Virus record (IMG/VR): IMGVR_UViG_3300025133_000027
Span: 1 to 64,000 of that record
DNA length: 64,000 nucleotides
Strand: one strand, 5' to 3'
Source: a virus
Numbering within the stretch: position 1 is the first letter of the stretch; each line of letters starts with the position of its first letter. Under the pieces are notes generated by a model. It was not told the origin of the DNA and ran no database searches. It worked only from the letters and a program-made list of their open reading frames with translations. A program made the position numbers and the translations under genes. Positions 27,942 to 40,915 of this stretch are shown in pieces.

Positions 27942-29315
27942 ATGGCAATCAAACTTATTATAGAATCAAAACAACTCCTAACCGAACTTAAGTGGAACGA
28001 AGTCCTTAAGCGCTTTAAGTCCAAAAAGTTTTTGAGGTTTGCGAAAAAACTCTCTCAAGACGGTGCTCTTGGTGGTGAAGCTTATTGGAAGGATCACTAT
28101 TCAACGCAACCGGGCCAACCTGCTTTCGAAAGATATCTCGAAGTCCTTGAGGACTACCTAGCTGGAAGTGAGGAAAATCCCTCGGACTTCATCCCAGAAG
28201 ATATTGAAGATAAAGAAAAAGCTGAAGCTCTTAACTGGCTTATTAGTGTTGCTATGAAAGCTCAGGCTCTTCCAAAACTAGAAGATGAAATCTATATGAG
28301 CCTTGAACTTTTTTATCAAATAAAAAACGAAGCCCCTCATTTGCTCAAAAAGAATAAATCTCTTATGACGTTTGAGGGATGGCGTCATCTTGAAGTTGTT
28401 GTTGTGAAGGCTCGTTATGAATTCATGGCTCACAGAGCCAAGAAAGAAGAAGAAGAATTTGCCCGGAAAGGTGGAGGAGAAGGCGTCAATCTTATTTATG
28501 AAGATCAGAAATGGTCAGTATATATCCCCGAAACACAGATGGCAGCACGATTCCTTGGAAGAGGAACAACTTGGTGCACAGCAACCAATCCCAAAACTTC
28601 AAGAAACCATTATCATGTCTATCACACAAAAGAAAGTCCTTTATATATCTTTATCAGCAAAGCTGACCCCACTGTTAAATACCAGTTTTCATATATGAAA
28701 ACAGACTTCGCAACCAGAGAAAATAAGCAAGCCCCAGAGCTTAAGTTTCTTGAATTAAATGAAATAATTAAAAAAATTGGCGCTCCTGTGATTGCTCCGT
28801 TCAACCTTAAAATGGCCAACAACTCTTTGATCGAGCATTTTGAAGGTGGTTATAGGACAAAAATAAGATCCGATGAGAAATACTTCAACAATGAAGGGAA
28901 GCTGCATCGAGTTGACGGCCCTGCTATGACGAACTATGATTTGAGTGGGCGACCCTCTAAGGAAACTTGGTTTGAGGATGGTATAAGACACCGCGAAGGT
29001 GGCCCTGCTGTTACATTTTTCTTTGGAGATTCCGATGAAGGGGATTCTTTCGTTTGGTTCTATAAGGGATATAAACACCGAGAAGGTGGCCCTGCTGAAC
29101 ATAGTACTGATTCAATCAGCGAGACATGGTATGACCACGGCTCTATTCACCGCGAAGATGGACCTGCCATAACATCTCTAGACTGGCTAACAAAAAAACC
29201 TATTTACAATTATTATCTCTATGGAGAAAAATTTACCAAAGAAGAGTTTGAGACTAGAACAAGTGCAGCACTTAATGAATCTCTTGAGCGTGTTCTCATG
29301 CTTGCGCGTGGCTAA
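27942..29315 (+). CDS. carrier protein: N-terminal leader + WCTA (PcfJ-like) domain + HREDGPA repeats, no cargo
   Basis: IPETQMAARFLGRGTTWCTA; four HR-(D/G)GPA repeats; ends LNESLERVLMLARG. Confidence 0.85.
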   Translation: MAIKLIIESKQLLTELKWNEVLKRFKSKKFLRFAKKLSQDGALGGEAYWKDHYSTQPGQPAFERYLEVLEDYLAGSEENPSDFIPEDIEDKEKAEALNWLISVAMKAQALPKLEDEIYMSLELFYQIKNEAPHLLKKNKSLMTFEGWRHLEVVVVKARYEFMAHRAKKEEEEFARKGGGEGVNLIYEDQKWSVYIPETQMAARFLGRGTTWCTATNPKTSRNHYHVYHTKESPLYIFISKADPTVKYQFSYMKTDFATRENKQAPELKFLELNEIIKKIGAPVIAPFNLKMANNSLIEHFEGGYRTKIRSDEKYFNNEGKLHRVDGPAMTNYDLSGRPSKETWFEDGIRHREGGPAVTFFFGDSDEGDSFVWFYKGYKHREGGPAEHSTDSISETWYDHGSIHREDGPAITSLDWLTKKPIYNYYLYGEKFTKEEFETRTSAALNESLERVLMLARG

Positions 29316-29545
29316 GATTCAATATGTTCTCTTCCAAAGACTGGGTATTTCACGTAGGCATAATTTATGAAAGCTTTTTCGATTCTGTGCTTTAGATATC
29401 TAAAGCCTCCTTCTTCTTCTAAATAGCTCTTGCCTGCATATTGGTAATATGCTCGTCTTGGCCCTAGAGTATCACCTCTATTTACCGGGACATACACCCA
29501 ATATGTGCCACAATCTAATTGATATACCATTGCATTATCACTCAT
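29312..29545 (-). CDS. YPVF-tail family protein
   Basis: KYPVFGREHIES. Confidence 0.75.
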   Translation of the reverse strand: MSDNAMVYQLDCGTYWVYVPVNRGDTLGPRRAYYQYAGKSYLEEEGGFRYLKHRIEKAFINYAYVKYPVFGREHIES

Positions 29546-38505: not shown

Positions 38506-40915
38506 GATTATATTAAGAGAAAGTAAAAAACTTCTTCTTGAAGTAAAATTAGAAGACGTTAAGAAGAGATTTAGATCTAAGAAATTCCTTCGAGTTTTTA
38601 ATGAAGAATATATGAGAAATGACGAAGAGAATTACCCAGGGGATGAACCATACGCATCCCATGAGGACTTTATAACTGATATTTCCACTGTGATGTTGGA
38701 AGTAATCCCCCATGATATACATGAATCTGCGCAAGCAGAGGCTCTTCAATGGCTTATTTCTCAAGCTATATTAGTCAAAGAATATGATTTCAGAGGAACT
38801 TTTTTTAAGAAAGATATTGAAAACTTTTATAAGATAAAAAACGGAAGATCTCAGTTTCTAGAAGAAAAGAGTTTAAATAATATTGTTGCATTTGCTCACT
38901 TAAGAGACATAATTGAAGAGGCTCTTCCTAAATATCTTAACTGGATCCGAGAAAAAGCTGATCTGTCAACAAAGGGGAATGGTGTCAACCTGATTCATCG
39001 AGGTGCTGTTTGGGAAGTATTCATTCCAGAAACTCGGGGAGCTGCTATCCGACTTGGTGCCGGCACTAACTGGTGTACTGCTGCTAGGCCAGGAGCACGA
39101 AACGAAAATCTGTATGATCATTATCATAGTGAAGAAGCTCCACTATATATCTTTATCAACAGAAAAGATCCTGCTGAGAAATATCAATTTGCTTATACCC
39201 ACGATGAGTTCATGGACAGGACCAATGAAGATTGCAGAAATACTTCTAAATTCTGTGATATGAATGAAATCATCAAAGGCCTTGGTCCAAGGATGATTAC
39301 CTCACTTAACCTCGCAGAAGCAAAAAAACAAAAATATAAAAAAATTGGGAAAGGTTACTATCTTATTGAAAAAGAAAAAGGTAATATTGCTTATGTCAAC
39401 AAACATGGCTATCATAACGAAGACGGTCCTGCCGTGGTTTCCAATTATGGTGCAGAAAAAGAATGGCATCAAAACGGGAAACTTCATCGTAAAGACGGGC
39501 CGGCTTTCATACGAAGAAAGCCGAAACTTGAAATGTGGTTCCAAAATGATATGAGACACCGAGAAGATGGTCCTGCTTTAATCAGCAGTTCAGGCCAGGA
39601 AGAGTGGTATCTGAAAGACAAGAGACACCGAAAAGATGGTCCCGCTTATTCTACAGATACAAAAGAAATATGGTTTCTGCATGGAGAAAGGCATAGAGTC
39701 GGAGGCCCCGCTCTTACTGTACACAAAGAGCTTGTCAGCATGAGTAGAATCCTCCACGCTTTCTATCAAAACGGGAAACTCCATAATGATGATGGGCCTG
39801 CCGAAGTTTATTACACTGGTGAAAAGAGGTGGTATAAAAACGGAAACCTCCATAATGAAAACGGCCCTGCAAGAATTGCTTCAAACGGGGTTTCGACTTA
39901 TTATCTTGATGGCGAACGAGTGCCAGCCCCAAACGAAGATCCAGCTAGGTTTAAAATCTTAAAAAAATATCTTGGGTTTGGGAAACCACCCGAGCGTGAT
40001 GACCCAAAAAGGAGACTTAGGTGGCTCGATGAAGCTCAACTTCCAGCAAAAGAACCAATTGACCAAGATGACCACCCATTATTCCCAGAAGAGGCAAACC
40101 GCAATATTTTAAGACATAACGTTAAATTTATCTTTCACGAACTTAAAAACTCAAAACATGCAGTGAGGACTGGTTTGCCATTGATAAACGATATGTTTTT
40201 CTTTGGCATGGCAGATGGCCTTTACGACCAATTGCGGGATATCCACTATGAAATTGCGGATATCGAAACTTCAGATCCATATTTTCATGAAAAAAGGGAG
40301 TCTTTAAGAAAAGAATATTCTAAAAAATGTTTTAAGACTGTTTTTAACACTGTTGTTCAAACCCCTCCCCTTAATAGCTCTAAGATTGTAAAACATCTTG
40401 GATCTGGTGCAAATGGAGTAGCTTATGAGTTAGCTTCTGGTCGTGTCTTAAAGATTGGCAGAAGTGAATATGGAAAAGACTCTGGCCTCGCTCGTATGAC
40501 TTTTGGTGATGAAGAAGACGAGTATTTTAAGAACGTTTCAATTAGCAAAAACTTTATGCCGGTGTTTGCCGCAGGTAAATATAAAGAACCTGTTGGTGGA
40601 AATATCTCTTGGAGAGAAATACCTTTCTTCAATATGCTTACAAACACAGACAAGAAACATTGGAGTATTCTTAAAAAACTAATGGATATTCTTATTAATA
40701 GACAATTTGATGTTCTCAACTACAAACCAATTCAAATCATAAACTTAGCAAAACATTTTAAAATCCCAATCAACAGCTCTCTTGAGACAAGTGAAGGAAT
40801 GATCCGAGCAATGCTTAAAGCTCTGGAGGTTTATGGAGACCTCCATGACGCCCACATAGATAATGTTGGGACCCTAGTTCAAGATCCTTCTACTTATGTG
40901 ATCTTTGATAACTAG
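38495..40915 (+). CDS. carrier (WCTA + HREDGPA repeats) fused to minimal kinase
   Basis: GTNWCTA; 7 repeats; NRNILRHN, LGSGANG, DAHIDNVG, ends IFDN. Confidence 0.85.
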   Translation: MSIKIILRESKKLLLEVKLEDVKKRFRSKKFLRVFNEEYMRNDEENYPGDEPYASHEDFITDISTVMLEVIPHDIHESAQAEALQWLISQAILVKEYDFRGTFFKKDIENFYKIKNGRSQFLEEKSLNNIVAFAHLRDIIEEALPKYLNWIREKADLSTKGNGVNLIHRGAVWEVFIPETRGAAIRLGAGTNWCTAARPGARNENLYDHYHSEEAPLYIFINRKDPAEKYQFAYTHDEFMDRTNEDCRNTSKFCDMNEIIKGLGPRMITSLNLAEAKKQKYKKIGKGYYLIEKEKGNIAYVNKHGYHNEDGPAVVSNYGAEKEWHQNGKLHRKDGPAFIRRKPKLEMWFQNDMRHREDGPALISSSGQEEWYLKDKRHRKDGPAYSTDTKEIWFLHGERHRVGGPALTVHKELVSMSRILHAFYQNGKLHNDDGPAEVYYTGEKRWYKNGNLHNENGPARIASNGVSTYYLDGERVPAPNEDPARFKILKKYLGFGKPPERDDPKRRLRWLDEAQLPAKEPIDQDDHPLFPEEANRNILRHNVKFIFHELKNSKHAVRTGLPLINDMFFFGMADGLYDQLRDIHYEIADIETSDPYFHEKRESLRKEYSKKCFKTVFNTVVQTPPLNSSKIVKHLGSGANGVAYELASGRVLKIGRSEYGKDSGLARMTFGDEEDEYFKNVSISKNFMPVFAAGKYKEPVGGNISWREIPFFNMLTNTDKKHWSILKKLMDILINRQFDVLNYKPIQIINLAKHFKIPINSSLETSEGMIRAMLKALEVYGDLHDAHIDNVGTLVQDPSTYVIFDN

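Follow-up and report, generated by a model that had tools for sequence, protein, structure and literature searches.

A portable N-terminal tag and a reused module joint in WCTA-domain proteins of a marine T4-like phage: a possible system of capsid-loaded effectors

The DNA analyzed here (the window) comprises 64,000 nucleotides, positions 1 to 64,000 of IMG/VR virus record IMGVR_UViG_3300025133_000027; that record is 176,254 bp long (CheckV completeness, 97%; GC content, 38%) and stems from an uncultured marine T4-like phage. The window encodes three paralogous proteins of 457 amino acids (aa) (paralog 1, 27942-29315), 662 aa (paralog 2, 36517-38505), and 806 aa (paralog 3, 38495-40915), all on the plus strand. 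Each consists of a short N-terminal tag, a domain with a WCTA core, HRxDGPA repeats, and a joint of the form (L/I)-(N/D)-E-(S/A/G), behind which lies a 10-residue tail, a DEDDh exonuclease, or a minimal kinase-like domain, respectively. The tag was also found on unrelated proteins, related phages break the proteins exactly at the joint, and the genome encodes a prohead protease of the S77 family. There is about an even chance that the proteins belong to a system of capsid-loaded, protease-trimmed, and ejected effectors resembling the internal proteins (IPs) and Alt of phage T4.

Alignment of the three paralogs revealed a common leader of 15 residues, M-x-I-K-(L/I)-I-(I/L)-(R)ESK-x-LL-x-E, and the motifs RF-SK-FLR, IP-DI, AEAL-WLIS, and GT-WCTA in all three, which bears out the initial annotation of this DNA with regard to the leader, the helical motifs, the WCTA core, and the HREDGPA repeats. 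Residues 1 to 290 of paralog 2 were 50.8% and 44.9% identical to paralogs 1 and 3 (E values of 2e-90 and 3e-66). In paralog 1, the tag (MAIKLIIESKQLLTE, 27942-27986) contains I-x-E at residues 6 to 8 and L-x-E at residues 13 to 15. The WCTA core motif is located at 28572-28583, and its W, C, and T are invariant in 57 family members. The region of HRxDGPA repeats, a DUF6745-like short repeat, extends over 28869-29174 and contains four units; paralogs 2 and 3 contain three to four and seven units, respectively. In relatives, the units align with a small segment of Pfam DUF6745; they also make up two repeat-only proteins at window positions 225-1538. The repeat DNA is common to many other marine metagenome sequences, and at window positions 37455-37691, within such repeats, a depth spike (86 versus about 10) was observed together with many loose ends and joints in contigs of runs X4 to X7. 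The predicted L-x-E junctions were found behind the repeats as LNES at aa 444 of the 457-aa protein, LNES at aa 395 of the 662-aa protein (37699-37710), and LDEA at aa 511 of the 806-aa protein (40025-40036). The three proteins had been described as carrying no cargo, an exonuclease, and a kinase. The exonuclease assignment holds, and the kinase is accepted as kinase-like; paralog 1 has no enzyme domain but ends, behind LNES, in the 10-residue tail LERVLMLARG (29271-29312 including LNES), a segment similar to the helix at the N-terminus of the free kinases described below.

Comparison with related phages indicates that modules are joined and parted repeatedly at (L/I)-(N/D)-E-(S/A/G), a genuine boundary between them. 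In a syntenic relative (L084, a 32,908-bp contig with 80 to 99% protein identity), only a 272-aa exonuclease is encoded at the position of paralog 2. This protein starts with MTIKL, continues directly with NESNSMIG, and is 96% identical to residues 394 to 662 of paralog 2; at the DNA level, codons 6 to 395 are lost in frame between two AACTT microhomologies, exactly up to the LNES junction. The same in-frame skip of 1170 nt was found on a contig of run X6, which stems from a separate study. In a third relative (a 13,987-bp contig), the two parts lie in different proteins, a front part of 376 aa that ends ...QINEGLDRIRKLSGL and an exonuclease of 269 aa that starts MINES.... Fusions of the front part to a kinase, of 1,086 and 1,102 aa and with LRV-type repeats, occur in other phages; their middle part is WYL-like by eye only. 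Around LDEA, the 806-aa protein reads RRLRWLDEAQL, a segment that can be aligned with the start of the free kinases (KRILKLAEINY). These forms support the annotation's view of modular proteins with L-x-E as a real module joint.

The alternative that the fusions are artefacts of assembly or gene calling found no support, even though relatives with split or shorter forms exist. The identical 806-aa protein was present on 4 contigs, with variants of the same length and 90% identity on 2 more, and the 662-aa protein was likewise present on 4 contigs. Contigs from independent runs span both joints without difference (X5 record 12, 36663-38086; X4 record 6, 37550-40665), and the short form is an exact in-frame deletion. 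Because the same proteins recur and the joints are bridged independently, the fusions are considered genuine and the artefact explanation refuted, with next to no likelihood remaining for it.

The tag comprises about 14 to 15 residues and is amphipathic. It reads M-x-I-K-L-I-I-E-S-K-K-L-L-x-E in this phage and M-K-L-L-F-E-N-W-R-K-F-L-x-E in most relatives, and L13 and E15 are invariant in 11 family sequences. Within 79 IMG/VR loci that carry the WCTA family, the tag was detected on 41 open reading frames (ORFs) outside the family (33 unique), often on several per locus, in the form MKLL(L/F)ENWRK(F/Y)(L/I)xE. Pfam assignments among 31 of these ORFs included NUDIX (3), NT5C (2), and GNAT (1). 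A search for the tag at the DNA level, with an exact degenerate pattern, retrieved at least 120 IMG/VR stretches. Among the matches listed, 82 unique complete tagged ORFs were recognized, only 1 of which contained the WCTA domain; the other 81 had a median length of 201 aa, and 66 of the 82 carried [LIVM]xE at residues 12 to 14. Glu occupied tag position 14 in 24 of 32 cases. The codons used for the Leu, Arg, Lys, and Phe/Tyr residues of the tag differ between phages and are near-identical within one phage, and this synonymous variation between phages argues for selection on the tag peptide. By this sequence comparison the tag is portable, since it heads unrelated ORFs nearly all of which lack the WCTA domain, and the WCTA family is only one among many kinds of protein that bear it. 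If the proteins are loaded into the head, the likely signal is the tag of about 14 residues and not the WCTA domain. The annotation had proposed a shared N-terminal chassis; a common front part does exist, but the WCTA domain is unlikely to be the carrier, and the tag also heads unrelated enzymes.

The tag model behind the locus counts above, for which the N-terminal 32 residues of 60 external family members were used, was also compared with the N-termini of the 621 ORFs of this genome. Beyond the paralogs, the best match was a 783-aa protein (genome 119903-122254; E value, 0.0034), and weak matches were obtained for a 251-aa protein (genome 171037-171792, starting MKKILESFRKYVED; E value, 0.025) and for a free DEDDh exonuclease paralog (genome 164392-165639, starting MNDMKLIMENFDKK...ELLKEV; E value, 0.068). 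The 783-aa protein is encoded directly after the capsid gene, has a tag-like N-terminus, is preceded at a distance of 26 nt by a perfect ACTATTTATA motif, and contains a GITSCHSP...VVYLI segment reminiscent of the WCTA core. It was rejected as a family member, as hhalign to the family profile aligned the leader alone (P 0.03), and it matched no Pfam or PHROG family and no protein of cultured phages. A tagged HAD-like protein likewise had no match among cultured phages, and P0271 had none in IMG/VR. A reading of the tag as a recognition tag for radical-SAM enzymes was discarded for this phage; no Radical_SAM or SPASM gene was found in the 97%-complete genome. Papers retrieved on capsid targeting sequences in marine and T4-like phages, all of them reviews or omics work on T4 or giant phages, did not describe the tag in their titles and abstracts, which does not prove that it is unpublished.

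The closest known system is the capsid targeting sequence (CTS) of T4 with its IPI to IPIII and Alt proteins and the gp21 protease. According to passages of PMC9026906, gp21 cuts after L/I-X-E, as the annotation had stated for T4-type prohead proteases; the N-terminal 10 residues of IPIII are enough to direct loading into the head, and Alt is processed at both ends. The internal proteins of T-even phages are described in part of PMC3012670 as a diverse defence set with the CTS as the sole common part. Both IPIII and IPII of T4 (NC_000866) start with MKTYQEFIAE followed by A. The proteins studied here resemble this system in that a short N-terminal peptide ending in (L/I)-x-E stands on otherwise unrelated proteins, a gene for a protease of the gp21 family is present, and the sets of cargo are diverse and fast-changing. 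The N-terminal tag together with the LNE-S tail of paralog 1 would correspond to the trimming of Alt at both ends, the cuts here being predicted. The tag differs from the CTS of T4 in its greater length (14 to 15 residues) and in the absence of detectable sequence homology, while the layout is the same. Furthermore, unlike the T4 IPs, the cargo consists of large enzymatic proteins with several domains (kinase, exonuclease, and WCTA domain with repeats), and a second, internal cut motif is located at the module joint, unlike in T4.

By analogy to T4, the tag would act as the counterpart of the CTS and bring the protein into the prohead core, where a gp21-type (S77) protease would remove the tag by cutting after its terminal (L/I)-x-E. 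A probable second cut, after the Glu of (L/I)-(N/D)-E-(S/A/G) behind the repeats, would separate the exonuclease or the kinase from the front part. The released pieces would exit the capsid with the DNA and act on the host at once, possibly through degradation of host nucleic acids and phosphorylation similar to that by T7 gp0.7.

In favour of capsid loading, the genome encodes a prohead protease with a Peptidase_S77 domain (genome 114859-115464; 81.2 bits at 114952-115374; PHROG head maturation protease, 1.6e-48). An S77 protease was found in 17 of 22 large records bearing the WCTA family, including 10 of the 11 that are at least 90% complete, and in 14 of 39 tag-bearing records. All 5 tag-bearing records with a completeness of 90% or more have it, the other records being fragments of 6 to 85% completeness; these co-occurrence rates stand without a baseline. 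Of 195 family members, 62 have the motif [LI]xE at a distance of 8 to 24 residues from their C-terminus, compared to 36.2 +/- 5.4 (maximum, 56) at control positions; typical C-tails of the family are GLRESKSSVKIRIVK. With Glu at positions 7 to 20, [LI]xE occurred in 11 of 18 plus-strand ORFs of at least 150 aa at 27 to 58 kb, a figure inflated by paralogs, versus 14 of 95 elsewhere. The N-arm of the major capsid protein contains ELLRE followed by ASS. The domain model also matched gp205 of Pseudomonas phage PA5oct (482 aa, adjoining the terminase gene) with 62.5 to 63 bits over the core, including GKGTRWCTAA. This protein is the sole family member in PA5oct, starts with MKLFEVFTLYE followed by D, and carries the GenBank note 'structural protein, ESI-MS/MS'; PA5oct encodes an S77 protease as well. 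The proteome of MIJ3, which spans four major bands only, was uninformative.

Several observations weigh against capsid loading, in addition to the missing baseline noted above. The PA5oct homolog is distant and matches in the core only, and the PA5oct virion list of 93 products, as given in part of PMC7318152, includes 7 'virion-unrelated enzymes'. The motif (L/I)xE carries little information, and the residue after the Glu of the tag is often E, N, K, V, or L and not a small one. The tag doubles as the first helix or strand of the domain, and LLxE recurs before internal tandem copies of the domain, so that the tag may be structural. The tagged cargo includes enzymes of nucleotide metabolism (NUDIX, NT5C, and HAD-like), which are not classic capsid cargo and are typical of mid-infection metabolism. 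The chassis-less exonuclease of L084 retains only MTIKL of the tag; its conservation at 96% identity indicates that the exonuclease works without the front part. Finally, no clear late promoter precedes the first gene of the operon at 34010: the copy of the motif ACTATTTAT at 33998 is imperfect and lies only 12 nt from the ATG at 34010, which is too close. Together with C-tails such as KIRIRIKK, which look able to pair as a strand with an N-terminal MIKIKII, these features of the tag, the cargo, and the promoter favour an explanation in which the proteins are ordinary cytoplasmic modular enzymes that are never packaged, the tag is a docking or oligomerization helix or the structural element with which the WCTA domain begins, neighbouring genes became fused when stop codons were lost, and (L/I)xE occurs by coincidence. 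For docking, a helix would not have to be located at residue 1 or to end in (L/I)xE, as is the case in 66 of the 82 tagged ORFs among the matches listed. The S77 protease in all of the most complete tag-bearing records, the virion annotation of PA5oct gp205, and the enrichment of [LI]xE near C-termini also argue against a purely cytoplasmic role, which we regard as rather unlikely.

The WCTA domain itself was analyzed with a family profile built from 11 sequences. The family comprises 7,340 clusters at 50% identity with E values of up to 1e-3 and 226 clusters with E values of up to 1e-30. The domain extends over about 290 residues, contains a GTxWCTA core, and nearly always begins at residue 1; some giant proteins carry 2 to 5 copies, each after LLxE(I/V)S-ED(V). 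Five residues (G, W, C, T, and Q) do not vary among 57 diverse, longer members. Pfam analysis of these members revealed mostly binding repeats and sometimes enzymes at their C-termini: LRV (6), LRV_2 (5), LRR_5 (2), DUF6745 (2), and single cases of HEAT, WG repeats, phage lysozyme, GNAT, and PcfJ (5.2e-4). Twenty-nine of the 57 match phrog_28193 and 29 match phrog_17056, both PHROGs of unknown function, and the WCTA domain of the three paralogs matched no Pfam or PHROG family. The label 'PcfJ-like' given to the domain was not confirmed. Pfam PcfJ (PF14284) matched neither the three proteins at E values of up to 10 nor the six-frame translation of the genome, and the leads to PcfJ consist of the single relative among the 57 and an ESM Atlas score of 0.87. 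To our knowledge, PcfJ itself has no known activity. In the literature, the term 'PcfJ-like' was found in the context of diversity-generating retroelements. A comparison of the WCTA profile with the Protein Data Bank (PDB) returned TFIIH p62 (E value, 0.078) and a ribosomal protein, both of which were rejected as chance matches. As a side observation, Salicola phage SCTP-2 (440 kb) contains seven copies of the WCTA domain, and neighbours of these genes, some of them without a match to the domain model, have a common leader of their own, MK(V/I)(K/R)H...L(F/Y)E(S/N).

The invariant residues raise the question of polarity, and the WCTA domain may be an enzyme. According to this alternative, the invariant Cys would be catalytic and the variable C-termini would be accessory or targeting parts, with or without packaging, so that the proposed roles of carrier and cargo would be exchanged. 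The 2 to 5 tandem copies in giant proteins and the predominance of binding repeats among the C-terminal partners, with enzymes as rare as one lysozyme and one GNAT among 57 members, are in agreement with this explanation. It is nevertheless improbable in our judgement, given that neither an enzyme family nor a solved structure was matched credibly and that the link to PcfJ is weak. In the T4-like reading preferred here, the WCTA domain and the repeats are more likely to represent a co-delivered effector or a target-binding module than a passive carrier.

The exonuclease domain of paralog 2 (37759-38436) matched Pfam RNase_T (PF00929) with an E value of 2.9e-10 and 41.3 bits (cut-off, 24) and the PHROG 'DNA polymerase exonuclease subunit' with an E value of 8.7e-20. 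The motifs FFDTETTG, NAQFD, and HSADAD (37783, 38101, and 38347), which correspond to the acidic Exo I to III motifs with His, are present. The kinase-like domain of paralog 3 (40262-40912) contains a G-loop (40397), a Lys (40445), D-x4-N (40847), and FDN (40898), and the protein terminates two residues past the Mg-binding Asp. As the annotation had noted, the kinase cargo also exists as free paralogs next door, three of which are located directly upstream on the plus strand: a 249-aa protein (34010-34759; N-terminus MKKLKRILKLAE followed by INY), a 288-aa protein (34771-35637), and a third protein (35627-36508) of 293 aa from a TTG, for which the ATG at 35645 is the likelier start. The C-terminus of the 806-aa protein is 31 to 35% identical to these three (E values of 1e-23 to 1e-28) and weakly similar to a divergent kinase-like paralog of 341 aa (44226-45251, plus strand), which has the tag-like start MNFKILIES. 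A homolog search retrieved 3 close relatives only. In 7 kinase sequences from three phages, GxGxxG, the beta-3 Lys, the alpha-C Glu, D-x4-N, and the final Mg-binding Asp are invariant. Pfam kinase models did not match the domain, PF27024 being outside the models scanned. Profile comparison with solved structures gave 5 matches, all of them kinases and weak (E values of 0.036 to 1.2). In the ESM Atlas, the free kinase paralog adjoins viral clusters with 17 to 23% Phage_T7_kinase (PF27024) members (feature score, 0.97), and its Atlas model gave TM values of 0.44 to 0.61 against Pkinase clusters. Because of the residue pattern and these Atlas and profile leads, the designation 'minimal protein-kinase-like' was accepted as a prediction from sequence and models. 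The adjacency to Phage_T7_kinase clusters and the conserved catalytic residues are features in common with the T7 gp0.7 kinase, and the domain differs from it in its end, which follows immediately on the Mg-binding Asp. T7 gp0.7 is an early protein and is not known to be packaged.

When the tag, the joints, and the cargo are taken together, a broader proposal can be made tentatively, and we hold it with less than even confidence: that marine T4-like phages possess a plug-in payload system in which the tag and the cut joints would load any enzyme, either alone or behind the module of WCTA domain and repeats, that this module would steer the released kinase or exonuclease to its host target after ejection, and that the joints are the exact points at which phage populations exchange, fuse, and separate the modules.

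The annotation had compared the proteins with MuF polymorphic toxins. As described in part of PMC5576092, these have a conserved N-terminus, variable enzymatic C-termini, and a proposed delivery by the head, features which the present proteins resemble. The proteins are not MuF toxins: Pfam scans of the proteins detected no MuF domain at E values of up to 10, and no cognate immunity gene follows the cargo. Unlike MuF toxins of temperate phages, the proteins are encoded by a T4-like phage with no temperate genes in the parts examined, and the downstream region contains opposite-strand ORFs ending in YPVF that match no Pfam family. Polyvalent proteins of phages and conjugative elements (Iyer et al. 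2017, PMC5512222) are similar in combining several unrelated activities in one polypeptide and in their predicted injection with the DNA early in infection; the proteins described here differ from them in the dedicated N-terminal tag, the protease-type joints, and the small architectures of 2 to 3 modules. The text search of PMC5512222, made for PcfJ, gave 0 occurrences.

The YPVF ORFs form arrays on the minus strand next to two of the paralogs. Three small ORFs ending in (K/R)YPVF are located at 29312-29545, 29542-29754, and 29754-30011, and two more, ending in RYPLF and KYPVF, are located at 40958-41248 and 41245-41448. In the genome, 10 of 621 ORFs end in [KR][YF]P[VLAI][FI], compared to 0.125 expected from shuffled sequences; they encode 67 to 115 aa, 8 of the 10 are on the minus strand, and they are distributed over window positions 26427-30011, 40958-43016, and 5420-5698 and genome positions 175483-175803. 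The YPVF genes are conserved in L084. The arrays are thus real, but the role as inhibitors or adaptors that had been suggested for them is not supported. Next to genes of the WCTA family in other phages, only 2 of 1633 short ORFs were of this type.

The phage has a T4-like head module, with genes for the large terminase (genome 109121), the portal (genome 110710), the S77 protease, an acidic scaffold-like protein (genome 116668-117939), and the major capsid protein (genome 117969). The annotation had placed the proteins in the context of jumbo phages; the T4-like head module and the ordinary genome size of 176 kb show that this phage does not belong to the jumbo phages. At its end the scaffold-like protein reads ...NHRITRWKELAGI, and its C-tail, RITRWKELAGI, resembles tails of cargo-less family members (LERVLMLARG and LDRIRKLSGL) in a single post hoc regex match. 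Analysis of upstream regions revealed a motif, ACTATTTAT(A/T), on the plus strand in 15 of 16 cases and 12 to 117 nt upstream of the starts of head-module and other genes. Sites noted are at window positions 30820 and 33998 and at genome positions 112573, 114537, 116633, 119877, 125034, 145892, 155311, 158707, and 159654. The motif is a candidate late promoter that differs from the T4 late promoter TATAAATA; the latter was rejected for this genome, as its 25 sites showed no pattern.

Additional features were observed in the neighbourhood of the paralogs. A protein of about 197 aa is encoded by the gene that immediately precedes paralog 1 (27341-27934, plus strand). Residues 63 to 130 (numbering of a 245-aa ORF from 27197) are 40% identical to residues 20 to 85 of the capsid N-arm, a second piece matches capsid residues 392 to 424, and Glu is absent at the site aligned to the capsid LRE-A sequence. 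Large peptidoglycan-binding proteins with PG_binding_1 form a cluster at window positions 30850, 47904, 50164, and 52085 (regions 30850-33815 and 47904-54235), which includes a YkuD_2 L,D-transpeptidase (33138-33815, minus strand). The 763-aa peptidoglycan-binding protein at 30850 has a late-type motif upstream. Compared to window positions 30008-34759, the first kinase paralog precedes the 763-aa gene in L084 and replaces a 220-aa minus-strand ORF (30008-30670). The run X6 contig skips 33922-34764 as well, and the region is rearranged between strains.

If the T4-like reading is true, abundant ocean phages would carry ready-made kinases, nucleases, and nucleotide hydrolases into the cell together with their DNA, and much of this contribution to host take-over and counter-defence would so far have gone unseen. 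A first functional context would follow for the WCTA family with its at least 7,340 sequence clusters. The tag and the cleavable linker would then represent a natural, portable means of capsid loading for phage engineering. To this picture the locus contributes the WCTA family as a major bearer of the tag, fused enzyme cargo, a virion-annotated homolog, and fusion and fission at the population level exactly at a joint of the cut type.

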